A stretch of 64,000 nt of DNA. Source: a virus. Positions 31,509 to 60,819 of the stretch are shown here, piece by piece. Positions within the stretch are counted from its first letter, which is position 1. The number at the start of each line of letters is the position of its first letter. The notes below the pieces were generated by a model. The model did no database searches. It worked only from the letters and a program-made list of their open reading frames with translations, and was not told the origin of the DNA. The stretch covers positions 3,053-67,052 of the IMG/VR virus record IMGVR_UViG_3300038465_000068. One strand, written 5' to 3'. The position numbers and the translations under genes are program-made.

Positions 31509-32486
31509 TTAGTGGGTGGCGTCCTTGAACAGATAGCCGAGATCGGAGCCGGAAATCACCATGGCGAAGGCGAACTCGCCGCGCACCACGTCCTGCTTCT
31601 TTTTCTCGTCGTAATACTGGTCGATGCGGACGCCCGCGTCGTTCATGCCGGTCAGCTTCGACCAGCAGAAAATCGTCGCGGCGGTCGGCGACATCAGCGT
31701 CGGCGCACCTTCCTTGTAGGTCAGCAGCGCGTTGGCCGGGATCGCGAAAGCCTGCGTCTTGGTGACGGCACCTTCATTGGTGGACGAATAGGCCGCCTTG
31801 GAGACGTGGTACTCGTCCAGTTCAAAGAACTTGGCGATCAGCGCAGCGGTGATCGACTCCTGCGACGTGTACTTGATGCGGTCCTTGATGATCGGGTGAC
31901 GCTTGAGCGCCTGATGCACCGAATAGGCCACGGACAGCACGTTGCCCTCAAACCCGGTCGTCTTGACCATGTAGTTCTTGGCGTCGTCCATGTTCTTTTC
32001 CGGGTCCGATGCATAATCGTCCCACGAGGTAAAGTCGGAGCCGCCGCCAGCACTGCCGTTCTTGGTGGTCGCCCAGCCGGAGGTCGACAGCATGAAGTTG
32101 GTGGCGAACAGGCGCTCGCGACGGATCAACATGCGCTGCGTCACAAGCTGCGCGGCCGCCTTGTCCAGCGCCACACCCGGATCGGCGTTTGCCGTCACCA
32201 TCTGGGACAGCGGCACGGCGGTCCACCACGGGGTCGCGTTGTAGGACTGCTTGGAGAGCGTAAAGCCGGACTGCGGGGCTTCCTCGTTCTCGGCGCGAAC
32301 CTTCACCGCGTCATCGCGCATCCAGTCGTCCTTGTTGAACACGAAATACAGGTCGGACTTGTGCTCAACCGGGAAGGTCGGGATGGCGTTGCCGCCGATG
32401 AAACTCGCGTTGTCCTGAATGTAGGCCAGCGAGAAATCGGTCAGCGCCGCATCGGCGTGGACGTCGGAACTGGTAGGTTGCGCCAT
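31509..32486 (-). CDS. major capsid protein (lambda gpE-like)
   Basis: DVHADAALTDFSLAY, LKRHPIIKDRIKYT, DLGYLFKDA. Confidence 0.9.
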   Translation of the reverse strand: MAQPTSSDVHADAALTDFSLAYIQDNASFIGGNAIPTFPVEHKSDLYFVFNKDDWMRDDAVKVRAENEEAPQSGFTLSKQSYNATPWWTAVPLSQMVTANADPGVALDKAAAQLVTQRMLIRRERLFATNFMLSTSGWATTKNGSAGGGSDFTSWDDYASDPEKNMDDAKNYMVKTTGFEGNVLSVAYSVHQALKRHPIIKDRIKYTSQESITAALIAKFFELDEYHVSKAAYSSTNEGAVTKTQAFAIPANALLTYKEGAPTLMSPTAATIFCWSKLTGMNDAGVRIDQYYDEKKKQDVVRGEFAFAMVISGSDLGYLFKDATH

Positions 32487-33046: not shown

Positions 33047-34543
33047 TTAGGCGGCCCTACGCGCCTCGCGCGCTTCGATTTCTTCCTGCTTCGCCAGTTC
33101 CGGGTTCTGGTCGCGTGCCATCACGCGAGCCTTTGCCAGAGTCAGCTTGGCGTCCTTCTGCATCAGAACATTGGCGGCGGCGTTGATGCCTTCGATGGCC
33201 TTGGAGAAGCCGCCGTTGCCGCCGTTGCCGCCGATTTCCTTCAACAGGACGTCGGACTTTCCGATCAGCGTGTTGGCGCTGACCAGCACCTTTTCGATAG
33301 CGTCGGCATCGGCCTTTGTGGCCTTACCGATGCTCACGCGATAGAGGATGGCGGCAGTCTCGTCGGCCTTGCCGATCAGCAGCTTGAGCGGCGAGACGCG
33401 CTTCTCGATCACGCCGATGGCGGTCTCGCGCTCGGCCTTCTGGATGGCGGCCTGCTGGGACTTCACGACGGAAAACATGCTGTCGCCGACCGACTTGCGC
33501 AGAACCTTGACGCCGTCGACCTTGATGCAATTCTTCTGCGCACCGTCGCTGTCGTCCTCGTCCTCGTCCTCGTCTTTCTCCTTGGCGGCCTTCTCGATGG
33601 GGTTCTTTTCCATGTGCTTGTCGCGCTGGTCGGCGGACATATCGGCAAAGGCTTCCTTGCCGCCTTCCGGCATCTTGGCCTTCTCGTTGGCCATGAACGC
33701 GGAGTGCTTGCCGGACATTTTCAGGATTGCATCGGCCCGCTTGGCCAGAACGGCCTGCGCGTCAAGAGCCTTCTGGACCTCGGCCTCGGTGGCCGTCTCG
33801 GCCAGACCCAGCGACTTTGCGATGACTTTCTGCATGTCAGCATCCCCATGTTCGGCACCGTGCGGCGCGAGCCCTACGATGTGATCTTTGTACTCGCTGA
33901 AAGTTTTGCGCAAGAGTGACGGCTTGTCCTCCCCGGACGTACTGTCCGCGATGCTCCATGCGGAGGAGATCAGCGCCGCCTTTGCGACACGCAGACCGTG
34001 CTGCTTTTGCTTGCGGATTTTGGGGTCCGCCAGCTTGGCAATCTCGTCCTCAATTTCCTCGGCTTTTGTGACGTTTTCCAGCAAGTCCGGCAGGGCGCGC
34101 GGGGCCACCCGCATGATCTCCATAACTAGGTCGCCGCCGATGCTTTTTCCAGCCTTCCATTCGGCAGGCAACAGGCTCGTCGCATCGAGCGAACGGGCCC
34201 GCGCGGTGATGTGAGATTTGGCCTTGGCCGGGTCTTTTGCGCGGCCATGTGCGCGAATCGCGTTCTCAAGATCGGTGCGGTCCTTGATCGGAAAGCTGCC
34301 GTCCGGCATCGCTGCACCTGACGCCGCGTCCTCTTTGCGCTGGTCAGCCGTGAACGTCCGCTTGAGATACGCCTCGACAGCGGCGGGCAGGTCAGTCGCC
34401 CCGGCCGCCTTGGCCAGATACAGGTCAAGGTCGCCCGTGCCAGCGTCGCGCTTGGCGATCAAGGCGAGCGCGCCCTTCTGGGCTGGCTTGTCCACACCGG
34501 AAATCTCGTTCATCTTGAAGCTGCGCATGATTTTCTTGGCCAT
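33047..34543 (-). CDS. capsid scaffolding protein carrying the protease C-terminal strand and an internal domain
   Basis: Starts NEISGVDKPAQKGA; AMPDGSFPI..DLENAI domain; many hxK-A/S motifs. Confidence 0.75.
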   Translation of the reverse strand: MAKKIMRSFKMNEISGVDKPAQKGALALIAKRDAGTGDLDLYLAKAAGATDLPAAVEAYLKRTFTADQRKEDAASGAAMPDGSFPIKDRTDLENAIRAHGRAKDPAKAKSHITARARSLDATSLLPAEWKAGKSIGGDLVMEIMRVAPRALPDLLENVTKAEEIEDEIAKLADPKIRKQKQHGLRVAKAALISSAWSIADSTSGEDKPSLLRKTFSEYKDHIVGLAPHGAEHGDADMQKVIAKSLGLAETATEAEVQKALDAQAVLAKRADAILKMSGKHSAFMANEKAKMPEGGKEAFADMSADQRDKHMEKNPIEKAAKEKDEDEDEDDSDGAQKNCIKVDGVKVLRKSVGDSMFSVVKSQQAAIQKAERETAIGVIEKRVSPLKLLIGKADETAAILYRVSIGKATKADADAIEKVLVSANTLIGKSDVLLKEIGGNGGNGGFSKAIEGINAAANVLMQKDAKLTLAKARVMARDQNPELAKQEEIEAREARRAA

Positions 34544-34545
34544 GG

Positions 34546-44642: not shown

Positions 44643-44855
44643 TCAGGCACCGCCTTTCAGCACGTCGTCCAGCGTCGAGGTCACATAGACCGTCTCGCTG
44701 GCGATGACGTGATAGTGCCGGTCGGGCTGGCCGTTCGCCACGGCGGCGGCGCGCAGGTCATCTGCCGCCGCCTTGGCTTGGGAAAAGTGCAAGTTTCTCG
44801 AAACATGCGGGATCGCGGTGCCGTCCGCTTGGATAACTGTGTGGGTCTTGTTCAT
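44643..44855 (-). CDS. hypothetical protein
   Basis: GAGGAGAG RBS; downstream of a promoter. Confidence 0.65.
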   Translation of the reverse strand: MNKTHTVIQADGTAIPHVSRNLHFSQAKAAADDLRAAAVANGQPDRHYHVIASETVYVTSTLDDVLKGGA

Positions 44856-44894
44856 TCGTCTCTCCTCGGTGGCGGCCCAACACGGGCCAAGGTG

Positions 44895-44923
44895 GATATA
44901 GGACAGAATGTCCTACGGTTCAA
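44895..44923 (-). promoter_or_regulatory. promoter with operator 44898-44916
   Basis: TTGAAC-N17-TATATC; ATAGGAC-AGAAT-GTCCTAC. Confidence 0.8.
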
Positions 44924-45165
44924 GCCATGCCCAGCAACTCGCGCAGGGCGTCATAGATCGGGTCTCCGGTCGTGTGGACCTTGGTGGCGGCGCATTGCCG
45001 GGCGTTTTCCTCGGCCCGGGCGAAGCTATCCTCGCCAACGCCGCACCCCGGGCAGACATGCGCGGCGTCGACGGTTTCGGCCGTGATGTCGCGCCCGTCA
45101 TGGCTCCAGATATGCCAGCACTCCGGGCAAACGTGGTGGTGGAAGCCATCGCGCAGGCTGCTCAT
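44920..45165 (-). CDS. small zinc-finger protein
   Basis: HVCPEC...HVCPGC. Confidence 0.65.
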   Translation of the reverse strand: MSSLRDGFHHHVCPECWHIWSHDGRDITAETVDAAHVCPGCGVGEDSFARAEENARQCAATKVHTTGDPIYDALRELLGMA

Positions 45166-45166
45166 A

Positions 45167-45343
45167 TCAGCACCCCGTCACGGAATCATACGTCACCTGA
45201 CGCTCGGTCTTGGCGCGCGCATAGGCGGCAACCTTTTCGGCCAGCGGCAGGTTTTTGGCGCGGGCGCGGGCGCGGGCATACCGTCTATCGGCGGCGCGCA
45301 GGATCGCGGCAGCATCAGGGTCGTTTGTCAGCCAGCCGATCAC
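45167..45343 (-). CDS. small basic protein
   Basis: GTGA-coupled start, GGAGG RBS. Confidence 0.5.
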   Translation of the reverse strand: MIGWLTNDPDAAAILRAADRRYARARARAKNLPLAEKVAAYARAKTERQVTYDSVTGC

Positions 45344-45435
45344 AGGTGGCCTCCAGCGATGATCCCCGCCACGATGAACGTGGCGGCGGCGGCGAAGTGA
45401 AGCGCCAGGATGGGGAAGGTGGCTGTTTTCGACAT
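45340..45435 (-). CDS. 31-aa hydrophobic peptide, first gene of the leftward operon (not in ORF track)
   Basis: MSKTATFPILALHFAAAATFIVAGIIAGGHL; GGAGAG RBS. Confidence 0.55.
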   Translation of the reverse strand: MSKTATFPILALHFAAAATFIVAGIIAGGHL

Positions 45436-45480
45436 TTTGTCTCTCCGGTTGAGCGGGCCAAAACGGCCCTTGACCCAACT

Positions 45481-45597
45481 GATATAGGACAGTCCGTCCT
45501 ATCCTTCAATGGCTATTTTTACGAAATGTTAGTGCCGTTTTTGGCGGAATACCGCCTTTTCTTGGCTCTTGAATAGGACGGCCTGTCCTACTATATT
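45481..45597. promoter_or_regulatory. divergent promoter pair, each with an operator (45484-45502, 45573-45591)
   Basis: Minus: TTGAAG-N17-TATATC; plus: TTGAAT-N17-TATATT; the coding strand switches here. Confidence 0.85.
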
Positions 45598-45643
45598 TGA
45601 CCTGTAAGAGGCCCGTTCTGGGCCGCCACTTTGGAGAGAGAAA

Positions 45644-46048
45644 ATGTCAGCCTTCCTAGTTTCCAACGAGACCATGCAGCGTGCCGTCGAGGCGATCTTT
45701 GTCGCCGAGGCCGGTTACGGTGACGTGGTCGAAGTCAATCCCAAGGCCGCCACCGAACTTGGCCAGCAGCTTTTCGAGATCAATCAGGCCGCGCTGGCGG
45801 CGCGCTACGGCGACAATGACGAGCCGCCGAAGTTTGTCGGCAAGGGCTTCACGGCCCGGATCAAGGCCGGTCCCGCGCAAGTCCTGAATGTCCAGCGACT
45901 CAAGTCGCTGCAATGCCTGACCTACCAGTGCGCCGAGGGCGACGTGCCCGAGACCGCGCTGTTCAAGCGGGCCGAGGCGGCCGAGGGCAAGCTGGCGCAA
46001 AAGATTGTCGCCCAGACCCCGGAATACGAGAAAGCGGCATGGAGTTGA
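45644..46048 (+). CDS. conserved phage hypothetical protein
   Basis: MSAFLVS...N..AL.ARYGD...CLTYQCAEG; GGAGAG RBS. Confidence 0.8.
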   Translation: MSAFLVSNETMQRAVEAIFVAEAGYGDVVEVNPKAATELGQQLFEINQAALAARYGDNDEPPKFVGKGFTARIKAGPAQVLNVQRLKSLQCLTYQCAEGDVPETALFKRAEAAEGKLAQKIVAQTPEYEKAAWS

Positions 46049-46050
46049 AC

Positions 46051-46230
46051 ATGACCCAGTTTCGCGTGCTGATCGGCGTGGGCAACGCCGCGTTTGATCC
46101 CGAGCCCGGCTATGAGATCGCCCGCATCCTGCGGGAGGTCGCAGACAAGATCGAGGGCGGCCAGACCGACGGCGGCGCGCTCGACATCAACGGCAACAGC
46201 GTCGGCAAGTTTGGATTCAGGAGCGAGTGA
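46051..46230 (+). CDS. small conserved phage protein
   Basis: NAAFD...EIARILREVADKI...DINGNSVG. Confidence 0.75.
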   Translation: MTQFRVLIGVGNAAFDPEPGYEIARILREVADKIEGGQTDGGALDINGNSVGKFGFRSE

Positions 46231-46231
46231 C

Positions 46232-46498
46232 ATGAAGATCGAGCATATTCAGGTTTACGGATCGGCTGGCGGCGTCGAGCGCAAAGGCGACATCACCGCG
46301 CACCTCGTACTGTCCCAGTGTGACACGGTCGAGGCCGTTCGCCAGCAGCTTGCGGCGTCCGATGATTTGGTCGAGGCGCTGCTGACCGCGCTACCGTTCG
46401 TCGAGGATGCCGGGGCTGATCCGGCGTACAAGCCGCGCTCGGTTTCCGAGGCTATCAGGAAAATCAGGGCGGCGCTGTCGAAGGCTGGGGCAATCTGA
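46232..46498 (+). CDS. hypothetical protein
   Basis: AGGAG RBS; LAASDDLVEAL motif. Confidence 0.65.
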   Translation: MKIEHIQVYGSAGGVERKGDITAHLVLSQCDTVEAVRQQLAASDDLVEALLTALPFVEDAGADPAYKPRSVSEAIRKIRAALSKAGAI

Positions 46499-46722
46499 TG
46501 CCTAAATCCTACCAGCAGATCATCGAGCAATTCCTGTACGCCACCCTGACGCCAGAACAGGCTGGGTGCGCGGCGCTGCTGGCCACGCTGGGGCCGACCG
46601 AGATATTCCAGTGGGGCGTGAACGCTGCGAAGCAACGCCTGCAAGACATCGCAACCGAAAACGGCAAAGATACCGGCGGCGTCCCGCCCGCCGCACCGCC
46701 AGCACCAGAGGAGTTAGCATGA
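46498..46722 (+). CDS. hypothetical protein
   Basis: TGATG coupling. Confidence 0.6.
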   Translation: MPKSYQQIIEQFLYATLTPEQAGCAALLATLGPTEIFQWGVNAAKQRLQDIATENGKDTGGVPPAAPPAPEELA

Positions 46723-46964
46723 TGGACAAGATGGAATTGAGACGGCCGCAGCAGGCCGCGCCGACCGAGCCCGGCTGGTATTATGGGCGCTTCCTGCTGG
46801 GCAATACCAGCAGATCAATCGAGCCGTACTGGGTCGGTGGACCGACGCTCGGCCCGGACCAATATCGCCTGTCCATCATGGTGGGCGACAGCGAGTATTT
46901 CCGTCCTGACTTCGACTGGTTCGGGCCAGTGCCGGAGTGCATCGAGGCGACGGTGCCAGCATGA
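46719..46964 (+). CDS. hypothetical protein
   Basis: PTEPGWYY...WFGPVPE; GAGGAG RBS. Confidence 0.65.
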   Translation: MMDKMELRRPQQAAPTEPGWYYGRFLLGNTSRSIEPYWVGGPTLGPDQYRLSIMVGDSEYFRPDFDWFGPVPECIEATVPA

Positions 46965-47332
46965 AAACCCGCGTCCTGCTGATCCCGCCGCTTGGCCAGC
47001 CCAGCATCACCGTGGTCGACCTGCCGGAGGAGCCGAACCACACCGCCATCGCCAAACTTGTCATCCCGCTGATCGGGGGCGGAAAGCACGTCTACATGGA
47101 GCGCGTTCGCGTGCTGGCCGACTTCGACGGCGGCACCAATTACCAGCCGACCGACATGATCGTCGACGAGGATTTCCTACGGAAGCGCCTGCCGCGCAAC
47201 GAATACGCCACCACCATTTATCGGCGGGCCACGATGCTCGGCCGGACAGGCGTGCCAGCGCCGAGCGATCCTGAAACTCTGCCTCCCATACTGGGCACGG
47301 CGGTGCTGTTTGATAGGAGGATTTGGTTTTGA
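46961..47332 (+). CDS. DUF3846-like protein
   Basis: MIVDED...LPRNEYAT...ILGTAVL. Confidence 0.6.
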   Translation: MKTRVLLIPPLGQPSITVVDLPEEPNHTAIAKLVIPLIGGGKHVYMERVRVLADFDGGTNYQPTDMIVDEDFLRKRLPRNEYATTIYRRATMLGRTGVPAPSDPETLPPILGTAVLFDRRIWF

Positions 47333-47493
47333 GCAACACAAAGAAAATACGGTCGAAGGCGCAAAAGAAGCGCCACGCCACGCGACAGGTCCGTCGTGGC
47401 AAGCAGAGCAAGGTCAAGATCGGCGGCAACAGACGGCCGCGCGTGAACCCGGAGTTCGACTATCTGGGCATCGGCGAAATTCTCGGCTTCTAG
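47329..47493 (+). CDS. 54-aa Arg/Lys-rich protein (not in ORF track)
   Basis: AGGAGG RBS, TTG start, MSNTKKIRSKAQKKRHATRQVRRGKQ... Confidence 0.55.
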   Translation: MSNTKKIRSKAQKKRHATRQVRRGKQSKVKIGGNRRPRVNPEFDYLGIGEILGF

Positions 47494-47576
47494 TGCCAGC
47501 CAGACATAGGACCACTAGACCTAGCGGACAGCCCGTCCCCCGTGCTATATGCGGACAAACGGGGAGTCCGAGCAAC

Positions 47577-47925: not shown

Positions 47926-48138
47926 TTGAGATACGCCTATTTGGACGAGGCCCCTGTCGTGTTCACGCTGAATGAGGCGTGGCATTTCGTCGGCGGGGAG
48001 TGGAAGTCGCTGCATCCGGCGGACGCGCACAGCAAGGCGCGGCTGCTATCGAGGGCAGAGTTTGATGCCTATGCGGCCGCAGCCGGTGCCGGGAAGTTGC
48101 CCACCGCCGCTTTCCAGCCCGCCGACAGCGAGTCGTAG
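47926..48138 (+). CDS. small protein overlapping the 3' end of the polyprotein, candidate immunity/antitoxin
   Basis: GAGGAGG RBS at 47902-47908 (in-frame CTG at 47914 or TTG at 47926); globular-looking 70 aa. Confidence 0.6.
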   Translation: MRYAYLDEAPVVFTLNEAWHFVGGEWKSLHPADAHSKARLLSRAEFDAYAAAAGAGKLPTAAFQPADSES

Positions 48139-51100
48139 GCCGGGCGATACACCGCCTGCTGGGCGGCGAACAATTCCGCAGCGCGCGGCGTCTTGGGATC
48201 AAGGCTTCGCCATTCCTTGTATAGATTATGCCCGCCGCCGCCCTTGGGGCTTTTCGCCTCGATCAGGGCAGGCGGTGCGATCAGCACCTCACCGATCTGG
48301 CCGTTCTTGAACTGGACGTTGACGGCGCGGTCGAAATATCCCTCGGCCTTCATCTTGTAGCCCTCGTCAGTTGCCGGGAATTTCTCGGCGAGCGCCTTGG
48401 CGACGGCATTGGCCTGTTCCAGCGTGTCGACGGCGAAGGTGCCGCGCACGATGTCGGTCACACCAGCAGGCGCGCGACCGGCCGCCATCTTGCGCAGCGT
48501 GGCGTGAAAATCTTTCACCAGAACGCGGGGCATTTCCTTGACGCCTGCCGCGCGCCATTGCGTGCCGGTCTCGTCGGCGATCTTGCTGGCGGTCTCGTCC
48601 AGCGTCGCCTTGTTGGCCTCGGCTCCTGCATAGACTTGCTCGATGCTGTGGAGCGGGCTGTTCTTGATCCATATGTCCTTGACGTTGCGCGAGTCGAGCG
48701 GGCCCACACCCTTGTTGCCGGGATTGTTGAGGTGGTCGGCCATGCGCTCATAGGCGTCATCCTCGTCAAGGCTTTCGAGATACGTCGGGCCTTGGTGCGC
48801 GCCATCACCCCACGATTCTGATGAACCGGCGTTGTTGCCACCGCCGGTCCAGCGGCCATCCTCGTCACGCGGCTCGGTCTCGCTGTACTTGGCGAACTGC
48901 TTGGCGAAGGCGCGCGCCAGCATCTTGCGCAGGCCCTTCTCCTCGGCCCAGCCGTCGTTGATCGGCGCGTGCACCTCCGGCCCGAACACCAGCGGGAAAG
49001 CTGGCGGCGTGGTCCCGGTCAGGTCTTTGCCGCCGCTGTCATAGGACAGGGTGACGTGGGTGAGATATTGCGGCCAGTCGTGCGATGCGCCCGCCGCCAT
49101 GGCTTCCTTGTGCCGGGCTTGCAGGTCATCGCTGTGGAAGTGCAGCACGACCGCACCCTTGTCGCCCAGCCCCATGATACCGCGCCGACCGCCGACCGCC
49201 GACACGGTGTCATCGTTCGGCTCCAGCGCCACCGGCTTGCGGCTATAGACCTGCGTGACGTGCATTTCGTGGGGCGGCACGAGATTTGGGATACCAGCGC
49301 GGGACGCCCATGCGTGCAGGCGCTCGGCATTGGCTAGTGGGCGATGGACGTACAGGCTGTCTGGCACGGCCAGCTTGCGCACCGCAGCCAGCGCGCCGTC
49401 GAAGGTGATCGACTTGGTCATGTCCGGGTCGGTGGAGGAAAAACGGCCATGCTCGTCATGGCTGGGGTTGAACTTCGCGACAGCGCCTAGCGCCTCGCCG
49501 AAGGTCAGCGCGCGCTTTTGCGCTTCAAGCTGGGAAGCCCACCGATCCCTAATCCCCCGCCATAGGTCTCCGGCGCTGCGTCCTTGATATTGGGATGGAT
49601 CGGATGCAATGGCCGCTTCGTAAGCGGCGCGTCCTCGTGCCCGCTGGTCGGCGTCGGTTCCTGTCCCTTCGTGGTCTCCGATGAACTCTGCATGACCGGC
49701 GGTCCTTGTGGCGTCGACATTGTGGGCAGCGGCAAAATCACCGACAGCGTGCCCAAGGGAGCCGTCAGTGTCCACCACCAGAACGCGGGTGCCGGAGGTG
49801 CTGGGAACTAAGGTGTGGAACCCGATGCCTGCTTTCAAGAGGGCGGCATGGGTTTCGGCAGGCTGGCCGGGCACCGTCAGGTCATACAGGGCGTGTGGCC
49901 CGTCCTGCGCCTTGTTGAACACAAGGACGGCCTTCTGGTTGGCGAGGTGGCCCTTCATCACCGTGGCCAGCCGCAAGGCTGCTGGGCTCGCTGTGTCGCT
50001 CTCCGTGAGGGTGGCGTTCTCTGCACCGTCCGACCATGCCCCGATCACCCCGGCCTGCTGGCTGACCAGCCCCAGCCGGTTGTCGATGTCCCGGGACATT
50101 GCCTCAAAAACCTTCTGGCGCGGCCCGGACAGGTCGTGCACCGCGCCGCCGAAATCCTTGTCGTGGATGCTGGCGCTGGCGAACGCCATGCCTGTCCACT
50201 TCCCGTCCTCGTCGCGGGGCTGATCCGGGTCGAATTTCTCGATGTGCCCGTCCACCGGGATCACGATGTAGAACGTAAGCGGCGGCCCGACCTTGCCGAA
50301 CAACAGCTTCTCGGCCTCCTTCGCTGACAGCGGCTTGATCCATTCCGGCTTAATCGGGCCAATGTGCCGCCACGCCGGATTTTCCCCAGTGAACGGATTG
50401 GGCTCAAACCTTTCGTCGGGTTTGACGTTGGGCGATTCCTCCGGCGGCAGGGTGACGCGCAGCAGCACAGGCTTCGTTCCGGTTTGCTCGGCCGCGTATT
50501 CGGCAAAGCGCGCTGCAACATCGGGGTACGGCGACATATAGACGGACATCTTGCGGTCGCCTGCCATCATGGTCTCGCGGGGCATGCCGCGCTCAATTCC
50601 CCACTTGTCAGCACCTTCGCCCTTGTGCGGGATCAAGCCCTCTTTCTTGATCGCCGCCAGCGCAGCCTTCGCGGTGCCGTGATAGAACGTGCCGCCGCCA
50701 GCCCAGCGCCCATGGTCATCCCGCTCCTCGTCGGGGTTGAACTTGCGCACGGCCGCCAGCGCAGTAGCGAAGTCCATGGCAGGCGTCGGGCTGGGCGGCG
50801 GCTTTGACAGCCAGTGCGGCAGCTTGTGCGCCATTTCCATTTCCAGCACGTCGATATTCAATTTGCCGCCGCTCTCCCACACGCCGCCATCAGCCTTGGT
50901 GATCGGCGAACTTTTGAAGTCCGGCGCGGCATCCTTCCATGCGTCCCACTTCTGCCAAGCCGTGCCCATCACCACAATCTCGCGCTCGCTCTGCACATTC
51001 TGGCCATAGACCGGGACGGACAGGATCGCGGTGCGCGGCACGCTGGCGCGCAGCACAACGCGGGTTTCATTGTCCGGGTGGAAGCCGACGCCACCCCAGC

Positions 51101-53282
51101 CGTTTGCCACGCTGCGGGTCGCTGTGGTGGACATCGCGCCGTTTCGCATGACGTTGATCTCGGGCAGCTTGGTGAAGCCATCGACCCGGACCTTCGGTGT
51201 CGCAGCAATGTCTTTGCCAGACAGCATGACGCCGCGATAGACCTGCACCACCGGCTTGTCGGCCTTGGCGAGGAGATACTGGGTGGTCTCCCACTTCGCG
51301 CGGACATAAGCCTTCACGCCGTCATAGCCGCCGACGTTGGCAAAGATGGAGTTGGCGTCGCTCTTGATCGAGTTGAGGTCATCGGTGTCGAAGTGCGCGA
51401 CGTTCAACCGGCCGCCCATTTCCTCGGCGGCGGCGACTTGCAGGATGCGGCCGTTGGTGCCGCTCGACGATTCCTTCCAGCCGCCCCAGACCTTTTCGTC
51501 GGTGTTTTTGATGTCCTGCATCGTCGGCTCGTCATCGCTGGCCGACCCTGACAGCGCGATCTTTTTGATCCCGCGCGCGCGCATCAGTTCCTTCGTCCGG
51601 CTCTGCGACAGCGCCTCGGCGAGGTCATGGGTGCGGCTGTAATCCTCGGAGTCGACGCTGCCGTCCTCGCTGTCACCGCTGGATGATGTCAGATATTCGT
51701 CGGACAGATTGTTCTGGGCGAACTTGTATTTATCGTCGTCGTCCGTGCTGTCCCAGCTTTCTTGAATCGAGGACTTGGCGGCATCGGCAAGATAGTCTGG
51801 CGGGTCCATGTTACCGGCGCGCTTGTCGCGCTCGATGGCGAAGGCGTCTCTGATCTTGGTGTCGAGACCTTCGCGCATTTCCTGCGTCAGGCGGTCCTGC
51901 GGCTTCTCCGGCTCGACGCCAACAAAGTTCGGATCGGGGTCAAAGCCTTCCGGGCTGTCGAGGGAACTGCCGCCGAACTCCACGCCACTATGCTTGTCGA
52001 GCCTGTCGCCACTGGTATTGAGCGTGATGGCGTCGTCCAGTTGCTCGACCGTGAACGGGATTTTCTTTTCGCCATCCTCCTCGCGGTCATCGAAGTGCTC
52101 TTGGATCGCATCGCGCAACCACTGGCGGCCCTTGTCGCCGCCGGTTTCGTTGTCGGCGATGTCGGTGGCCGCGTCCTCTGGCGCTTGGTTCTCGCGCCAC
52201 TGGTTTTCCTGATAGTCCACCTCCTGCTGGAGATTGTTTTCGAGGTACGCCTCCTCGGCCTTCGTCTGCGCATCACCTGTCAGGCCATCCCAGTCCGTCG
52301 CCTTGCCATCGCTATCGCCAACAGCGTCGCCGATGGGCTCGACGTGCTCCGGCATGTCGACGTGCAGCGTTTCCTTGCTGGGAAAGAACTCTGGAAATCG
52401 CTGGTCGACCTGCGCAAATTTCATGTCGTCAGAAAATGCGTCAAAGTGCACCCCAGCCTTCAACTCTGCCGCATCGGTGAAGTCTGGAACTTTCATGTTG
52501 AACACATTCTCGGCAGCGGCATGGTCAAAGGCGATTTTCGCCGCGCTCGCCAACGCAATGCGGTCATGCGGGTCCATGCCAGGATAGGCGTTAGGATCGA
52601 GTGTGATGTTGCCGGAAGTGTCGACCGATAGCGCGCTGCCGAGCGTTTTATAATCCGCCAGTTGTATATTGTTGCCGTTCGTAACAGTCAGCATATTCGC
52701 CCCGCCGCTGGACATGCCGGTGCCACCACCACGCGCAGCAGTCAGCGCGCGCATTTTCCAGTCATCAATCTGAAATTCTGCTCCCGGTACTACGCCTTGG
52801 AGCGTCTGCATCCTCGGGTTTTTCACGAGATCGGCGATAGCAACAGCCTTGCCTGGGCCGCGCTGCCAGTCGGCGTTCATTTGATATTGAAAGTCGGTTA
52901 TGTTGCGGGCGATGTAGTTAATGCGGACAGCCGCCTTTTGCGGCGCGGTCAAATCGCCAAAACCTTTCGGGTCTTTGCTGAAATCGGCGGGTGCGGTAAG
53001 CCGCGCGGTCAGCTTTTCGAGGTCAGGTTTCACGCCCTGAAACTGGCGCTCCATGCGGACAGCGGCGTTCTTGTTCCACTCGTCGCCGCCGACGTCGGTG
53101 ACGCGGGCATCCAGCGCAGGCTCGCCACCAAGGCCGGTGGCCGCCGCCACGGCAGCACCGCCTGCGCCGCCGCCGCTGGCAAATTCGCCGCCCTGCGACG
53201 TCCCAGCAGGCTCGTGGTTCGGGTTATACTTGTGGAGAAGGGACGCGGCGGCCATGGCCTCGTCGAATGTCATCGCCCCCAC
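48069..53282 (-). CDS. multi-effector polyprotein (two ART-like domains, unknown domain, Acb1-like 2H phosphoesterase, RelA/SpoT-like domain)
   Basis: YRG/MSTT/EREIVV; FYHGT..IKKEGL; HVTQVYS/HVTLSY; DIVRG/GYFD/GEVLI/HNLY; repeated linker motif. Confidence 0.85.
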   Translation of the reverse strand: MGAMTFDEAMAAASLLHKYNPNHEPAGTSQGGEFASGGGAGGAAVAAATGLGGEPALDARVTDVGGDEWNKNAAVRMERQFQGVKPDLEKLTARLTAPADFSKDPKGFGDLTAPQKAAVRINYIARNITDFQYQMNADWQRGPGKAVAIADLVKNPRMQTLQGVVPGAEFQIDDWKMRALTAARGGGTGMSSGGANMLTVTNGNNIQLADYKTLGSALSVDTSGNITLDPNAYPGMDPHDRIALASAAKIAFDHAAAENVFNMKVPDFTDAAELKAGVHFDAFSDDMKFAQVDQRFPEFFPSKETLHVDMPEHVEPIGDAVGDSDGKATDWDGLTGDAQTKAEEAYLENNLQQEVDYQENQWRENQAPEDAATDIADNETGGDKGRQWLRDAIQEHFDDREEDGEKKIPFTVEQLDDAITLNTSGDRLDKHSGVEFGGSSLDSPEGFDPDPNFVGVEPEKPQDRLTQEMREGLDTKIRDAFAIERDKRAGNMDPPDYLADAAKSSIQESWDSTDDDDKYKFAQNNLSDEYLTSSSGDSEDGSVDSEDYSRTHDLAEALSQSRTKELMRARGIKKIALSGSASDDEPTMQDIKNTDEKVWGGWKESSSGTNGRILQVAAAEEMGGRLNVAHFDTDDLNSIKSDANSIFANVGGYDGVKAYVRAKWETTQYLLAKADKPVVQVYRGVMLSGKDIAATPKVRVDGFTKLPEINVMRNGAMSTTATRSVANGWGGVGFHPDNETRVVLRASVPRTAILSVPVYGQNVQSEREIVVMGTAWQKWDAWKDAAPDFKSSPITKADGGVWESGGKLNIDVLEMEMAHKLPHWLSKPPPSPTPAMDFATALAAVRKFNPDEERDDHGRWAGGGTFYHGTAKAALAAIKKEGLIPHKGEGADKWGIERGMPRETMMAGDRKMSVYMSPYPDVAARFAEYAAEQTGTKPVLLRVTLPPEESPNVKPDERFEPNPFTGENPAWRHIGPIKPEWIKPLSAKEAEKLLFGKVGPPLTFYIVIPVDGHIEKFDPDQPRDEDGKWTGMAFASASIHDKDFGGAVHDLSGPRQKVFEAMSRDIDNRLGLVSQQAGVIGAWSDGAENATLTESDTASPAALRLATVMKGHLANQKAVLVFNKAQDGPHALYDLTVPGQPAETHAALLKAGIGFHTLVPSTSGTRVLVVDTDGSLGHAVGDFAAAHNVDATRTAGHAEFIGDHEGTGTDADQRARGRAAYEAAIASDPSQYQGRSAGDLWRGIRDRWASQLEAQKRALTFGEALGAVAKFNPSHDEHGRFSSTDPDMTKSITFDGALAAVRKLAVPDSLYVHRPLANAERLHAWASRAGIPNLVPPHEMHVTQVYSRKPVALEPNDDTVSAVGGRRGIMGLGDKGAVVLHFHSDDLQARHKEAMAAGASHDWPQYLTHVTLSYDSGGKDLTGTTPPAFPLVFGPEVHAPINDGWAEEKGLRKMLARAFAKQFAKYSETEPRDEDGRWTGGGNNAGSSESWGDGAHQGPTYLESLDEDDAYERMADHLNNPGNKGVGPLDSRNVKDIWIKNSPLHSIEQVYAGAEANKATLDETASKIADETGTQWRAAGVKEMPRVLVKDFHATLRKMAAGRAPAGVTDIVRGTFAVDTLEQANAVAKALAEKFPATDEGYKMKAEGYFDRAVNVQFKNGQIGEVLIAPPALIEAKSPKGGGGHNLYKEWRSLDPKTPRAAELFAAQQAVYRPAYDSLSAGWKAAVGNFPAPAAAA

Positions 53283-53745: not shown

Positions 53746-54032
53746 GTCTTTGGCTTCCTGATTTTGCGCGCGACCGCCAACTGCGCCGCCACCAGCTTGC
53801 CGCGCTCGGTCAGCGTGACGTGCACCTTGACCATGCCGCGCCCGGCCAGCGCGCGCAGGCTGATGTTGGGCGCTATGTCGGTGAAATCTGCCACCCGACC
53901 GCGCACCGCGCCGATCTTGGTCAGCGCATATCGCTGGGTCTCGCTAAGGCGCGGCTCGCCCCGGTGACTCATAAATCGGCCCGGATGCTTCCGGCGTGGA
54001 TCGTATAATCTTTTGGCGGCGGCTCGATCCAT
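53742..54032 (-). CDS. winged-helix-like protein
   Basis: LSETQRYAL...LRALAGRGMV...LTERGK. Confidence 0.55.
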   Translation of the reverse strand: MDRAAAKRLYDPRRKHPGRFMSHRGEPRLSETQRYALTKIGAVRGRVADFTDIAPNISLRALAGRGMVKVHVTLTERGKLVAAQLAVARKIRKPKT

Positions 54033-54331
54033 TCAACATAGGCTGAATTGTTGCGCATCGCGGCGGTGTGCTGCGGCTCGGCCTTCGCCACCGACATCAC
54101 GACAAAGCCGTCCTTGAGGCCCTGCGGGTTGTCCTCCGGCCGGGCGATATAGGTGATGGTGCGGCCGAGACTGTCGCCGGTCAGCGCGCCGGTCGCGTGG
54201 TCAAATTCCTGCAACAGCAGCAAGTCGCCGGGCTGGAAATCCCGGTCGGCCTTGCGCAGTTCGTGGACCTTGAGACCAGACCGCGCGGCGGCGAATTGAT
54301 CGGGCCAGATTTTCAGGCGGTGTGCGCGCAT
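53969..54331 (-). CDS. DUF3850/ASCH-domain protein
   Basis: HRLKIWPDQF...G.K.HELRKADRDFQPGDLLLLQEF. Confidence 0.85.
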   Translation of the reverse strand: MRAHRLKIWPDQFAAARSGLKVHELRKADRDFQPGDLLLLQEFDHATGALTGDSLGRTITYIARPEDNPQGLKDGFVVMSVAKAEPQHTAAMRNNSAYVEWIEPPPKDYTIHAGSIRADL

Positions 54332-55206: not shown

Positions 55207-55518
55207 TTAGCCCTGCGTGATGGTGGCAGGCTCAAGGCTGGCCAGCAGCGCGGCAAAGTCCTTGGCCTGCTGTTCCAGCGTGGCGGGCTGCACGCGCTTG
55301 TCGAAATCGAATATGCCCTTGATTTGGCGGCCGACGAACGAACCGAGGCTGGGCGCTTCCAACATCGCGGCCCATACCTCTGGCGGCACGTTGAGATAGG
55401 CATAGAGGCAAGGCGACGAGGCGTATTTGAAAACGACGCGCAATTCCCGGCTCTCGGGGAAATAGACCGCGCTGGAAAGCTGGCTGCTGGCCTCGATGCG
55501 CTTGGCGAAGGTGTCCAT
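55207..55518 (-). CDS. KTSC-domain protein
   Basis: SSQLSSAVY...LRVVF...YAYLNVPPEVW..MLEAPSLGSF...IKG. Confidence 0.85.
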   Translation of the reverse strand: MDTFAKRIEASSQLSSAVYFPESRELRVVFKYASSPCLYAYLNVPPEVWAAMLEAPSLGSFVGRQIKGIFDFDKRVQPATLEQQAKDFAALLASLEPATITQG

Positions 55519-55544
55519 GGTATTGTCCTGTTCGGGTTGGCCGA

Positions 55545-55576
55545 TTGCATATAGGCCAATCCGTCCTATATGACAA
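55545..55576. promoter_or_regulatory. overlapping bidirectional promoter centred on operator 55551-55569
   Basis: Minus TTGTCA-N17-TATATG; plus TTGCAT-N16-TATATG. Confidence 0.7.
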
Positions 55577-55597
55577 GGAACCGCAGAGGAGAAAACG

Positions 55598-55762
55598 ATG
55601 ACCGACTTCGAGAAAATCCGCCAGCGCCGCGAAATTATCAAGCAGCAAATACAGGCCCTCAAGGCCGAGGATCACGACCTCGGATGCGCCGAGGAGACCC
55701 TGAGACGACTCAGCCATACCGAGGTGGCCGTGCGCGCGCCGCTGGCCGTCGCCAAGGGATAG
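55598..55762 (+). CDS. 54-aa coiled-coil protein (not in ORF track)
   Basis: GAGGAG RBS; MTDFEKIRQRREIIKQQIQALKAEDHDL. Confidence 0.6.
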   Translation: MTDFEKIRQRREIIKQQIQALKAEDHDLGCAEETLRRLSHTEVAVRAPLAVAKG

Positions 55763-55830
55763 AATCAGCTTATAGGTGGAAACGGCACCCGGTCCCCTGA
55801 TTGGTCGTGCCTCGCCAACGGCGATAACTT

Positions 55831-55857
55831 GGCCCGGAGCGATCCGGGCCTTTTTTC
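55831..55857 (+). terminator. rho-independent terminator
   Basis: GGCCCGGA-GCGA-TCCGGGCC-TTTTTT. Confidence 0.85.
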
Positions 55858-56034
55858 TTAGCCCGGGCCGCCGCTGAGATAGACAAGCCCGACGGCACAG
55901 CCGATTGCGATAGCGGTCGCGCCAGCAAAGCCAAAGATGGCCGACAGCACCAAGCCAGCGCCCAGCATGTGCAGCGTGAACATAATAGCCAGCCAGATGG
56001 CCGCCCAGATCGCGACAGCTATCGCCTCGATCAT
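55858..56034 (-). CDS. small two-TM membrane protein (not in ORF track)
   Basis: MIEAIAVAIWAAIWLAIMFTLHMLGAGLVLSAIFGFAG...; ATGA coupling. Confidence 0.55.
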   Translation of the reverse strand: MIEAIAVAIWAAIWLAIMFTLHMLGAGLVLSAIFGFAGATAIAIGCAVGLVYLSGGPG

Positions 56035-56471
56035 GCCGTTTTCTCGGCAGCTTTATTTTTCTCGGCAACGCCTTCAAGCCGCGCCGCCTCGTGCCCGGCG
56101 CTGATGCGCGCCTGCTTCTCCAGTGCGAGACGGCTGGCCTCACTCTCGTCATGGAGTAGCTGCGCCTTCTCGACCAGCTTTTCCACATGCGGGCCTTGCG
56201 CGGCATGGCGTTCGTCAAGCTGACGCTCGGCCCACGCTTGCAGGCAATCGAAGTCGCAAAAGTGGTGCTGGAGGATCACGTCATGCCGGTCATGGTGCGT
56301 AATGTCGATGTTGCCCAGCGTCGGGTGGGCGAGCACGTCCACGACCTCGGTGCCAGCCTTCACCGGGATGCGGACACCCTGCGCCATCAGGTGAAAGCTA
56401 CGGCCTTCACCCTCGCTGATGTTCTTGCCGCAGTTCGGCGCGTCGCAGGTGATGACTTGTTCGCGTGCCAT
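56031..56471 (-). CDS. zinc-finger protein
   Basis: ITCDAPNCG...HFCDFDCL; true start at 56471 (upstream is RNA genes). Confidence 0.7.
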   Translation of the reverse strand: MAREQVITCDAPNCGKNISEGEGRSFHLMAQGVRIPVKAGTEVVDVLAHPTLGNIDITHHDRHDVILQHHFCDFDCLQAWAERQLDERHAAQGPHVEKLVEKAQLLHDESEASRLALEKQARISAGHEAARLEGVAEKNKAAEKTA

Positions 56472-56531
56472 TGGTGTCCCGCTCTGGAAAGTGATGCGGA
56501 CAATCTGGCCTGATTTGGCTGGCCGAGCAAG

Positions 56532-56604
56532 TGGTGGACGGGCCGAGGAGTCGAACCTCGTTTCCCCGCGCCGATGGCGTGGGGCGCGTCCCGCCGCGCC
56601 CGCC
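56532..56604 (-). ncRNA. 73-nt tRNA-like RNA with aberrant D and anticodon arms
   Basis: Acceptor GGCGGGC/GCCCGTC, T arm CGAGG-TTCGACT-CCTCG, 3' ACCA. Confidence 0.7.
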
Positions 56605-58195: not shown

Positions 58196-59338
58196 TTATG
58201 ACTGCTTTTGCTTCTCCCGCGCAATAGCGGCCTCGCGGTCGGTGATCTCCTCGTGCTGAATATCGTCGTCGTCGCCGATGTCATCCTCCTCCTCTTGGTC
58301 GATATAGGTGATGCAGCGGCAGTTCGGGTGCAGCGGCGGCGCGAGGATGGGGCCAAAAGGCGTTTGGAAATAGCCGTCTAGCATGACGCCATCCGGGTTC
58401 ATGTCGGGCACTTGCTCGCAGTATTCGCACAGCCTGTCGTCCGGCGTCACCAGCCAGTAGCGCCGCGTGTCCTGCCCAGCCAGCAGGCCGTTATCCACAG
58501 CCTGTCGCCACGCAAGCTGCATCGCCGTGTTGGAGGCACGCATGGTCTCGGTGCGGGAGATTGTCTCGGCTCGATCCCTAATGGTGTTGTTGCGGTAGCG
58601 GTTGACCATGGTGGTGATCTGTTCGTCGGTCAGTTCGCGGTCGGCGTTGGGGCCAAGCGCGCGGTTGAGCGTCGGATCATGGCGGCGGTCGCGCCGAGCC
58701 CGGGTCAGCGCCGTGCGGTCCTTGTTCCGCAGCATGCGCTCGAAATTGTCCACAGCCGCAGCTTGGTTCTCGGTCAGGCCGAGGCTTTCGCGGATTTTGC
58801 GCGCTTGCTCATAGGGATGGCCGCCCATCTTGAAGGCGTCCTCGATCACCCGGCGGATACCGTCGCGGGTGTCCTGCGAAACCTGTTGGATCAGGCCAAA
58901 GTCGTAATTGCGCAAGAATGTTGCGGCGTGGGGGTTTGTCAGGTTGAAGGACATACCAGCGCGCACGCCCAGAGTCCGTGCCGTGGTCTTGCGCCCGGCT
59001 TGGATAAACACGTCCTCCAGCGGCGTGGTCAGGCCCGGCTTGAGCGCATCGGTCAGTTCGGCCTCGACGCCCAGCGCGCGCATCGCGCCAGCCACGTCGC
59101 CGCGCTCGATGGCGTCGCGCAGCATTTCCTCTTTGATGGTGTTGCGCACGCGGCGCAGCGCCTCAAGGAAGGCAGCGGCAACGGTCGGCCCGGCCTTGTC
59201 GGCGATGGCCAGCAGCCAGTCTGGGTCCGGCGGCGGGGGTGGACCGTCCGCCTTGCTGATCGGCCGGTTCCAAGTTTGCCGGAGCGGCGCTGTCCCCAGC
59301 AGGCGTTGCCGGTGCTTACAGGCGCTAGGGACGATCAC
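58196..59338 (-). CDS. MuF/SPP1 gp7-family minor head protein
   Basis: RAETISRTE, W...DDRLC..C, PPLHPNCRC. Confidence 0.92.
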   Translation of the reverse strand: MIVPSACKHRQRLLGTAPLRQTWNRPISKADGPPPPPDPDWLLAIADKAGPTVAAAFLEALRRVRNTIKEEMLRDAIERGDVAGAMRALGVEAELTDALKPGLTTPLEDVFIQAGRKTTARTLGVRAGMSFNLTNPHAATFLRNYDFGLIQQVSQDTRDGIRRVIEDAFKMGGHPYEQARKIRESLGLTENQAAAVDNFERMLRNKDRTALTRARRDRRHDPTLNRALGPNADRELTDEQITTMVNRYRNNTIRDRAETISRTETMRASNTAMQLAWRQAVDNGLLAGQDTRRYWLVTPDDRLCEYCEQVPDMNPDGVMLDGYFQTPFGPILAPPLHPNCRCITYIDQEEEDDIGDDDDIQHEEITDREAAIAREKQKQS

Positions 59339-60819
59339 AGAGGCTTGCGCCTCCGGCGCTTGCCGACCGTGCCGCCCGCCGTGGAACCGCCGCCACCGCC
59401 TGCGGCTGTGCCACCAGAGGCCGGTTTCGCCCCGGGCATGCCGGGAGGCAGCTTTTCCTTGGCCTTGATCTCGGCCTCTTGGTTCTGCTGGTCCTGTTCC
59501 TGCCCGTCTGACACAGCGGTCGGATTGTCGGCGGCTGGCAGGCCAGCCTCCTCGCGCAGGTGGGCCTCCAGCGTATCGTCGGGAACCAGCGCGCCAGCGG
59601 TGGCGATGTCGGTGATGTACTGGCCAAGCTGCATCAGGTCCGACTTGGCGATGTCGCCGTGCGTGACCGTGACCTGCCCCTTCATGGCGTTGAGGCGCAG
59701 CAGTTCCGTCGCGCCGCGCTGGACCTCGCTGCTGATGATGTCGAGGTAGCCGATCACCGCGTTGTTGAACATTTCGGTCTTGTTCTGGGATTGCGCGCCG
59801 TGCCCGCCCATCCCGCCGCCACCGCCGTGCTGCTGACCCAGTGTGATGAAGTCGGCCATCATGCAGGCCGTCATGCCGTGGTCATAGCGTCCGATAATCT
59901 CGGTGGTGGCGAACTGGCGGCGGCCGCCGGTCGCCAGCAACTCGACCTTGAAAATGAGGTTCTTGTTGGCGTCATAGATCGCCGGGACGATCATGCCGCT
60001 TTGCTCGTTGTTGTTGACGAGATTGACCATTTCCTTGACGTAGGCCAGCGCGGCCTTGTCGTCCTCGCTGGCGTCTTTCTTGAACCACGCGGACGGCACC
60101 GTCACCACCGGCATGCCGCAGAGGTCGCGGCTCACGCCGATGGCCTCGATCTGCTGCACGCGCTTTTTCAGATAATAATACTCGTACATCGACCGCAGGA
60201 TGCTTCGGCCTTCCGGGTTGTTCTTGTACGGCGTGGTGCGGAAATGCAGGCACTTCGACAGCGGCACGTTCAACAGCGGGCCGCCGGTCGGCAATAGCTG
60301 CACCATGGAGATCGGATCGCCGTTTGGCTGAAACGTCCAGTGCAGCAGCGTCTCTTGCGCGCGCCCGGCGAACTTGCGCCAGCCCAGCTTGCCATCGGTG
60401 TACTGGGATCGCTGCGACGGGTCATCACCATCCGGCCCGCGCCGATATTTGTAGACCACCTCGTAAACGCCAAAGCCGTATTGCAGGAACGACAGCGCGT
60501 CGGCCATGAAGTCGGCCCAGCTATGCTCCATGTCGGCAAAGCAGCTTTGAACGAAATCGGCGGCGTCCTCGTCCTCCTGCTTGCCATCGGTGACGGCCTT
60601 GACCCGGAACGGCACCGGGCGCAGCAGCATTTCGACAGCCATCAGGATCGCGGAAATGATCGGGTCGTTGTCCCGCATTTCGCGCAGCATGAGCATGCCG
60701 CGACGGCCGATAAGGCTGCGCAGCCACTCCTCGCGGACATAGCCCGAGAATTGGCGCAGGCCGGTCGCGCCGAACTCCAGCACCGCGTCGCCGACTCCAT
60801 ACGGTTTCTTGCTGGCCAT
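59335..60819 (-). CDS. portal protein (DUF935-like)
   Basis: EMRDNDPII, NPEGRSILR, IEAIGVSRDLCGMP; between TerL and MuF. Confidence 0.9.
   Translation of the reverse strand: MASKKPYGVGDAVLEFGATGLRQFSGYVREEWLRSLIGRRGMLMLREMRDNDPIISAILMAVEMLLRPVPFRVKAVTDGKQEDEDAADFVQSCFADMEHSWADFMADALSFLQYGFGVYEVVYKYRRGPDGDDPSQRSQYTDGKLGWRKFAGRAQETLLHWTFQPNGDPISMVQLLPTGGPLLNVPLSKCLHFRTTPYKNNPEGRSILRSMYEYYYLKKRVQQIEAIGVSRDLCGMPVVTVPSAWFKKDASEDDKAALAYVKEMVNLVNNNEQSGMIVPAIYDANKNLIFKVELLATGGRRQFATTEIIGRYDHGMTACMMADFITLGQQHGGGGGMGGHGAQSQNKTEMFNNAVIGYLDIISSEVQRGATELLRLNAMKGQVTVTHGDIAKSDLMQLGQYITDIATAGALVPDDTLEAHLREEAGLPAADNPTAVSDGQEQDQQNQEAEIKAKEKLPPGMPGAKPASGGTAAGGGGGSTAGGTVGKRRRRKPL

Follow-up and report, generated by a model that had tools for sequence, protein, structure and literature searches.

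The subject of this analysis is a long gene of an uncultured phage of about 67 kb, known only as an IMG/VR virus contig (record IMGVR_UViG_3300038465_000068; 67,052 bases). The window, to which all coordinates refer, is the stretch of 64,000 nucleotides from position 3,053 to position 67,052 of that record. The open reading frame (ORF) at 48069-53282 is a real gene, with 1737 codons open; its likely start is the ATG at 53273, which yields 1734 amino acids (aa) and agrees with the database gene call (P0002). On sequence grounds its product is a stand-alone phage polyvalent protein of five modules strung together by related linkers. A first-pass annotation, made from the sequence alone, had described it as a string of effectors with a repeated cleavage and capsid-loading motif, and all six of the linkers lie where that annotation placed them (aa 4-34, 836-860, 1013-1029, 1259-1281, 1292-1303 and 1459-1478). 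The conserved peptide of the linkers is referred to below as the tag, the helix that precedes some of the tags as the leader, and the whole as a header. The parts of the gene, from its 5' end, are as follows.

48069..53282, minus strand: gene of the putative polyvalent cargo protein, 1737 codons from the GTG at 53282
53181..53273, minus strand: Header 1, the N-terminal leader helix MTFDEAMAAASLLHK and a long form of the tag, YNPNHEPAGTSQGGEF, then a Gly-rich run to about 53148
50778..53180, minus strand: Module A (aa 35-835), a long acidic N-terminal part and a C-terminal domain (about aa 600-800)
50703..50777, minus strand: Header 2, leader helix MDFATALAAVRK and tag FNPDEERDDHGRW
50247..50702, minus strand: Module B (aa 861-1012), an FYHGT...SVYMS domain
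50196..50246, minus strand: Header 3, HIEK and tag FDPDQPRDEDGKW, with no leader helix and preceded by the last strand of module B
49509..50195, minus strand: Module C (aa 1030-1258), an alpha/beta domain
49440..49508, minus strand: Header 4, leader helix LTFGEALGAVAK and the short tag FNPSHDEHGRF
49374..49409, minus strand: half linker, a leader helix alone (ITFDGALAAVRK, then L), the GRW half being absent
48942..49358, minus strand: Module D (aa 1309-1447), a predicted Acb1 2H phosphoesterase directed against the cyclic-oligonucleotide-based antiphage signalling system
48849..48908, minus strand: Header 5, FAKQFAK and tag YSETEPRDEDGRW
48072..48848, minus strand: Module E (aa 1479-1737), a predicted pyrophosphokinase of the RelA/SpoT superfamily, related to Tas1

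Five of the linkers are full copies (K-[F/Y]-x-[P/E]-...-G-[R/K/E]-[W/F]) and one is a half copy; all six have hydrophobic-x-Lys at the junction. The pattern K[FY][NDS][PE]x(2-12)G[RKE][WF] occurs five times in the protein, compared with a mean of 0.00095 in 20000 shuffles of it (19 shuffles had at least one match), and a profile of the five linkers, run against the whole record, returns six matches, all of them inside this ORF. As DNA the copies are merely 72-75% identical, which argues that their likeness is maintained at the level of protein and does not stem from recent duplication. The linkers are also domain boundaries: the Pfam Acb1 match (aa 1309-1447) falls between the half linker and the last linker; in an AlphaFold model of aa 1003-1304, the domain at 1031-1258 has a predicted local distance difference test score (pLDDT) above 90 and the flanking linkers fall below 50; and local alignments with homologues begin and end at linkers. 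These three lines of evidence bear out the view of several enzymes in one modular protein, with the motif recurring at each module boundary. Header 4 heads no module, there being only about 10 residues between it and the next leader. The amphipathic leader helix, x-T-F-x-x-A-L..., stands before four of the junctions, that of the N-terminus included, in this lineage. It was considered as a site common to the structural proteins and rejected as such, the pattern being confined to the polyprotein ORF within the window. The stretch MTKSITF...RKLAVPDSLYV (aa 1288-1310) resembles the N-terminus of a stand-alone protein (P0204), MTKAISF...TKLAVPDSLYV, and therefore looks like a fossil, a former gene start.

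The tag occurs far beyond this phage. A profile built from the five local linkers and searched among 1.84 billion cluster representatives matched 1891 of them at E<=1e-3 (431 at E<=1e-10 and 25 at E<=1e-30), and it also matched 37 loci in viral contigs. The motif had been expected to sit at module boundaries in homologues; the survey finds it there, and in these 1891 protein clusters. Statistics were drawn from 728 tags located in 149 of the best 150 of the 1891 matched proteins. Conservation begins 13 residues before the central Gly, ends 8 after it and is absent further upstream. The columns of this stretch read hydrophobic, x, K (48%), Y/F (74%), S/D/N, P/E, D/N, Q/E, P, R (82%), D (86%), E/D, x, G (100%), R/K, W/F (100%), T/A/S, x and G-G-G, with 2.5-4.6 bits in each of the core columns (728 tags, 149 protein clusters). 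The tag is thus a peptide of about 22 residues, predicted to be disordered, that consists of hydrophobic-x-Lys, [F/Y]-x-P-x-x-x-R-D-x-x-G-[R/K]-[W/F] and a glycine-rich spacer. The helix 'TFxxAL' is found in just 7 of the 728; it is a leader specific to this lineage and does not belong to the general tag.

The median distance from one tag to the next is 238 aa (5-95%: 133-536), with 10 of 579 spacings below 100 aa. Since 147 of the 149 proteins continue with a module beyond their last tag (in the other 2, 40 residues or fewer remain), the tag reads as a module header and not as a trailer. In 76 of the 149 a tag is already present in the first 40 residues, and the leader before it has a median length of 20 residues (range 3-36, setting aside one tag that is truncated at the protein start). 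The domains found in a systematic sample (33 of the 150 tagged proteins) include ADP-ribosyltransferase (ART) in 9, MuF in 4 and Zeta toxin in 3, with 2H, GNAT, histidine phosphatase, topoisomerase IB and others as single cases. No Pfam model overlaps a tag among the nine proteins with placed matches, and a full-text literature search with tag strings brought up nothing relevant. A tblastn search with one 23-aa tag against cultured phages gave a single weak match (E=0.8), short tags being below the reach of this tool; it falls at the N-terminus of a Nocardia phage P3.1 protein annotated as 'capsid maturation protease'. Polyvalent proteins are a known class; the header tag is widespread and appears to be undescribed.

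A complete relative (G009; 66.8 kb, with terminal repeats) is syntenic with this phage. At the corresponding locus (L013, 9938-12634), module C is a separate gene of 257 aa, 80% identical and with a leader and tag of its own. A second gene, of 599 aa, has an N-terminal domain of unknown kind, a leader helix, Acb1, a tag and the kinase; modules A and B are absent. By this arrangement the modules are independent units, which G009 distributes over two genes.

Modules D and E can be identified by comparison with known families. Module D matches Pfam Acb1 (PF23474) with E=1.7e-34 and 119 bits (cut-off 27) over model positions 2-143 of 144, and both HxT motifs are present (H1341-V-T and H1409-V-T). 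This is the sole match of the polyprotein in a Pfam scan at E<=0.1, in which neither a MuF nor a peptidase domain was found. Where Acb1 matches in cultured phages, the annotated features beneath the match include portal protein or prohead protease. Module E as a single sequence aligns with Tas1 (PDB 6OX6) at E=3.1e-6 over 35 residues; a 10-row profile of it aligns with Tas1 residues 242-435 at E=4.2e-20 and with a small alarmone synthetase, SaSAS (8VX3), at E=0.002. The Pfam family RelA_SpoT gave no match to this module. Tas1 is the (p)ppApp synthetase toxin of Pseudomonas aeruginosa.

The remaining modules are more distant from anything named. Module A (about 800 aa) is common to three other proteins (P0003-P0005; 33-36% identity), and in two of them (P0004 and P0005) it follows a portal domain. 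An iterative search with the tags masked places its final 200 residues in a family of 33 domains, drawn from 25 of about 200 gathered proteins, and does not spread beyond that family. The conserved residues (R683, 100%; S718, 93%; E766/E768, 80%/97%) form an R-S-ExE signature, and the C-terminal domain is a probable ART of the R-S-ExE type. The same search left untreated grew to 338 domains, because the tags had contaminated the profile, and was rejected. Alike tags falsely join unrelated modules, and automated domain clustering of such proteins is exposed to the same risk. Pfam yielded no match to module A; a profile of it and its portal-fused homologues matched portals and nothing else; hhalign against Pfam-verified ART modules aligned the tag region alone (E=0.29); and an AlphaFold model of aa 560-835, made from 4 rows, came out at pLDDT 46 and is unusable. 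Module B has many homologous modules, those in P0041 and P0025 among them. Because the copies in both proteins give weak Pfam matches to Tpt1/KptA and PARP (in P0041, 27.5 bits for Tpt1/KptA, cut-off 26, and 24.5 bits for PARP, cut-off 26.7), an ART fold of the H-Y-E kind (Tpt1/PARP-type) is probable for it.

Module C is well modelled by AlphaFold (23 rows, mean pLDDT 81, domain residues above 90). Foldseek returned only loose matches for it (TM 0.14-0.29, to monooxygenase-like, ACT-like and designed ferredoxin folds), so that it is assigned no function, and a search of the ESM Atlas gave no usable match. It is present in 42 shorter proteins, in some of which it stands alone behind an N-terminal header; its partners among the 42 are Acb1 (4), portal (4), MuF (1), NUDIX (1) and Zeta toxin (1). 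Sequence search matched none of modules A, B and C to a solved structure.

The neighbours of the polyprotein gene, all on its strand, belong to DNA packaging and the head.

60849-62663, minus strand: large terminase
59335..60819, minus strand: Mu-type portal protein with no extension, 494 aa
58196..59338, minus strand: MuF-like head morphogenesis protein with no extension, 380 aa
34546..35277, minus strand: candidate XkdF-like (Peptidase_S78_2) prohead protease, the ORF ending just past GFSIGG
33047..34543, minus strand: scaffold protein, 498 aa, rich in hydrophobic-x-Lys and with an EISGVDKPA motif at the N-terminus
32546-33031, minus strand: small scaffold-like protein
31509..32486, minus strand: major head protein (phrog_1005, E=3.6e-63)

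The gene lies between the terminase-portal-MuF group and the protease-scaffold-capsid group, inside a block of accessory genes. MuF is without extra domains, as the first-pass annotation had said, and so is the portal; the polyprotein is therefore stand-alone cargo, if cargo it is, and its headers must do the work that is done elsewhere by fusion to portal or MuF. A palindrome, ATAGGAC-N5-GTCCTAT, is repeated 14 times in the window with no more than 2 mismatches (0.05 expected), in copies that span 534 to 62992 and lie mostly at gene boundaries. Clusters of it at 44578-47524 and 55551-58181 stand one on each side of the polyprotein unit, the nearest upstream copy being the one at 55551, and there is a terminator-like hairpin past the stop codon of the polyprotein (47867-47854).

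Some features of the surroundings are recorded here for their own sake. A small ORF on the plus strand (47926-48138) overlaps the 3' end of the polyprotein gene. The genes upstream in its unit (53969-54331 and 55207-55662, minus strand) include a DUF3850 (ASCH-like) protein (E=2.2e-21), and a small ORF of the same region resembles, by eye only, a KTSC domain. ARAGORN calls an odd tRNA-like gene (Asp, anticodon ATC) at 56536-56604 on the minus strand and no tmRNA within 55800-57600. A 334-aa ORF at 39511-40515 (minus strand) contains about 20 tandem copies of the heptad G-A-A-S-A-T-G/S-x and matches phrog_4433 (E=8e-108) as well as tail-fibre and collagen-like families.

Where might the linkers be cut? 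The first-pass annotation had noted that hydrophobic-x-Lys is abundant in the scaffold and had seen a further instance, ISKA, in MuF. For the scaffold this stands: it has 29 such triplets, against an expectation of 13.3 +/- 3.0 (z 5.1; a number reached by 0 of 2000 shuffles), and 14 of the form hydrophobic-x-Lys-[Ala/Ser] against 3.0 expected. It is the sole real ORF of at least 120 aa in the window with a z of 4 or more. MuF is not enriched, with 1 hydrophobic-x-Lys against 2.5 expected. A general effect of amphipathic helices was considered for the scaffold and rejected, since neither triplets with R, E, D or Q nor other spacings depart from expectation in it (hydrophobic-x-Glu, for instance, occurs 8 times against 8.7). 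T4 scaffold proteins carry hydrophobic-x-Glu sites for their protease, and by analogy the scaffold of this phage looks like a substrate with multiple protease sites.

Lysine is also prominent in the tags at large. Among the 697 with a clear aromatic start, the residue just before the aromatic is K in 426 (61%) and R in 12; hydrophobic-x-K ends within 3 residues of the aromatic in 381, on a background of 0.0136 per position. Nine near-complete tagged records were used to look for covariation of junctions and scaffolds. In four of them the junctions are mostly hydrophobic-x-Lys (G000, 5/5; G009, 2/2; G015, 9/10; G003, 7/7), and all four have a scaffold or protease-scaffold ORF that is rich in Lys sites (z 4.6-6.1). 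In the records with no clear ORF of that sort, such junctions number 1/9 (G002), 0/1 (G017), 0/4 (G010, which has an ambiguous 1436-aa ORF), 0/2 (G019) and 3/5 (G021), and no ORF enriched in another junction pattern was found in any of these five. The proposed cleavage after Lys has gained indirect statistical support from these counts.

The enzyme that would make the cut is less clearly seen. An XkdF-like protease had been claimed for this phage, and there is a candidate ORF for it at 34546-35277; its resemblance to the family is weak (22.6 bits against the Pfam cut-off of 24; 23.3 bits in a genome search, or 24.7 with its frame neighbours). Where it meets the scaffold ORF (window 34480-34620, minus strand), the protease ORF stops right past GFSIGG...EEVA, and the scaffold ORF begins 2 nt later with MAKKIMRSFKMNEISGVDKPA, which includes a strand motif that usually closes protease domains of the HK97/XkdF type. 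The protease ORF probably lacks its last conserved strand. In G003 and G015, protease and scaffold share one ORF.

The reading that we favour is of a stand-alone polyvalent cargo whose modules are headed by tags and which is packaged, cut after Lys and injected with the DNA; its probability is, in our estimate, about one half. In outline, the N-terminal header would take the polyprotein into the prohead in the manner of the T4 internal proteins with their capsid targeting sequence. The prohead protease would then cut after Lys at each junction, at hydrophobic-x-Lys sites like those that abound in the scaffold, and the released modules would retain the F/Y...GRW tag at their new N-termini. Entering the host with the DNA, they would act before phage gene expression. 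We infer packaging, cutting and injection, and with them a reader of the conserved core. The repeat, its fit to the module boundaries, the identity of modules D and E, the wide occurrence of the tag and its orientation as a header, and the statistics of Lys sites are observations, and a capsid link exists in the form of fusions: module A homologues are joined to portal, and among the 42 proteins with module C there are the 4 portal and 1 MuF cases already given. The portal and prohead protease annotations beneath Acb1 matches in cultured phages, and the polyvalent protein of phi24B virions, speak for the same link. Recognition and cutting of head cargo probably take place at the tag.

Several points weigh against this reading. 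In its own column Lys, though the commonest residue, reaches only 48% (61% directly before the aromatic), and the strongest conservation is found downstream of it, in R (82%), D (86%), G (100%) and W/F (100%). The most conserved part, Y/F-x-P-x-Q-P-R-D-x-x-G-R-W, occupies the 1-13 residues past the proposed cut and exceeds in length and constancy what a protease subsite would need; a cleavage site alone cannot explain the motif, and a reader other than a P1 pocket is needed. MuF was rejected as an obligatory reader: of 25 tagged records 13 have it, and of the 9 that are at least 90% complete, 4. One protease family as sole partner of the tag was rejected likewise: XkdF-like enzymes occur in 6/32 records, HK97-type S78 in 8/25 and ClpP in 0/25, so that the tagged phages have at least two protease families. 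In this phage the XkdF-like assignment is at the family cut-off, and the protease may be split between two ORFs or completed by the scaffold. The four positive records of the covariation sample represent two lineages only, G000/G009 and G003/G015. The gene, for its part, is outside any contiguous late operon, with about 4.9 kb of small genes between it and MuF and about 13 kb between it and the protease, and promoter regions that bear the palindrome lie on both sides of its unit. Finally, no named enzyme family could be linked significantly to module A or to module B.

The alternative that survives best, which we rate as possible and about half as probable as the reading just weighed, is that the protein is virion cargo but stays uncut, its headers serving as docking or spacer peptides and its beads remaining joined, as is the case for other giant virion proteins. 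The place of the strongest conservation, in R-D-x-x-G-R-W and not at Lys, suits it, as do the predicted disorder of the tags and the Gly-rich spacers after them. So do published cases: Iyer et al. 2017 (PMC5512222) note that some polyvalent proteins are transferred at full length, and that large ones can be carried uncut also counts against a cut; gp47 of phi24B (2811 aa) is reported in virions (10.64898/2026.04.10.717836). The uncut string fits less well with hydrophobic-x-Lys in front of 381 of 697 tags, with the company that such junctions keep with scaffolds rich in the same sites, with N-terminal tags preceded by leaders of 3-36 residues, as would suit a propeptide, and with relatives that encode the same modules as separate genes.

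It is unlikely that the protein is not packaged at all, that is, that it is an anti-defence polyprotein made early or middle in infection and acting in the cytoplasm, with linkers that serve folding or processing in the cell. The Acb1 of T4 is the product of an ordinary expressed gene, and the situation of the polyprotein gene (in an accessory block between MuF and protease that has promoter-like and palindrome sites of its own and a terminator-like site past the stop codon, with MuF and portal both unfused to it) would be natural for such a protein. A cytoplasmic role is hard to fit with the covalent fusions in which module A, C and D homologues are joined to portal, MuF or prohead protease, with the protease domains of tagged phages, which share open frames with tags, and with the MuF domains in 4 of the 33 sampled tagged proteins.

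A two-step label is more doubtful still: leader and hydrophobic-x-Lys would load the cargo and be cut off, and the F, Y or L thereby exposed at the N-terminus would set a time for destruction of the injected toxic modules by ClpAP. Phe, Tyr and Leu are the bacterial N-end-rule residues read by ClpS; the residues after Lys at the six junctions are Y, F, F, F, L and Y, and Y or F fills that column in 74% of the 728 tags. Were this so, the phage would deliver a short, self-limiting strike, and the R-D-x-x-G-R-W core with its Gly spacer would be an unstructured degradation handle or else the part that is read in the head. A scar or joint of module shuffling at the level of DNA, devoid of any role in protein, for which one might cite the reshuffling of modules among relatives and the internal stretch that resembles a former gene start, is largely refuted by the DNA divergence of copies that keep the same residues (72-75% identity) and by core columns of 2.5-4.6 bits over the 728 tags.

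Proteins carried in the head act before any phage gene is read, and the opening minutes of the contest with bacterial immunity are thus settled by them. We know of no general address for phage head cargo outside T4. If the tag, which heads enzyme modules in at least 1891 protein clusters, is an address or processing label, injected arsenals could be recognised from sequence alone, and proteins of choice could be loaded into phage heads by means of a portable handle. The bias of the scaffold towards Lys sites predicts an exact, testable position for the cut, and a close relative in which the same modules are separate headed genes adds to what makes this a clean case. On the favoured reading of a packaged and injected cargo, Acb1 and the Tas1-like kinase are probable pre-made weapons.

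Several known systems invite comparison. As described by Iyer, Burroughs, Anand, de Souza and Aravind 2017 (PMC5512222), polyvalent proteins of the phage type include 2H phosphoesterase, RelA/SpoT and ART domains, and are proposed to be delivered with DNA and processed by zincin-like or assemblin-like peptidase domains inside the protein. The product analysed here resembles these in that a single phage polypeptide, encoded close to head genes, unites unrelated effector domains: it has more than two distinct domains (Acb1, the Tas1-like kinase, the folded module C and two further modules bounded by tags) and is encoded by a phage amid virion and packaging genes, accessory genes lying between. 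It has no peptidase or MuF domain of its own. A word search of the text of PMC5512222 brought up no mention of a repeated header peptide, linker or conserved motif; the domain alignments in its supplements might show the motif. The polyvalent protein gp47 of phi24B was found in virions by proteomics, according to 10.64898/2026.04.10.717836. The MuF polymorphic toxins of Jamet et al. 2017 (PMC5576092) likewise tie toxin-like domains to phage head morphogenesis genes. They are defined there by an N-terminal MuF, whereas MuF is here a separate 380-aa gene; a word search of that text turns up no mention of a linker or conserved motif.

Module D is like Acb1 (PF23474) in matching nearly the whole model and in having both HxT motifs, and unlike free Acb1 in being one bead of a 1737-aa protein. 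Module E is like Tas1 in its significant alignment with the catalytic domain (residues 242-435), and unlike it in being borne by a phage and headed by a tag; it is a predicted kinase. Encapsulin cargo-loading peptides are short and disordered, and are joined by flexible Gly-rich spacers to varied enzymes within a shell of the HK97 fold. The tag differs from them in sequence, the likeness being one of layout only.

The closest model is T4, whose internal proteins and Alt are diverse anti-defence proteins that share only a short N-terminal capsid targeting sequence, which takes them into the scaffolding core (PMC3012670). Shared with T4, on the favoured reading, would be the principle of a short N-terminal address for diverse cargo. 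A leader helix that ends in hydrophobic-x-Lys is present at the N-terminus of this protein; it has no sequence likeness to the T4 signal, and several cargoes are here on one chain. In T4 the prohead protease removes the address at hydrophobic-x-Glu. In this phage, by contrast, the junction is hydrophobic-x-Lys, the triplet in which the scaffold is rich, and the scaffold has no excess of hydrophobic-x-Glu (8 against 8.7). Unlike gp21 of T4, an S77 enzyme, the protease candidate is of the HK97/XkdF kind (no search dedicated to the S77 family was made). The address in this phage would also be bipartite, unlike that of T4, and the mature protein would retain the larger, conserved part of it.

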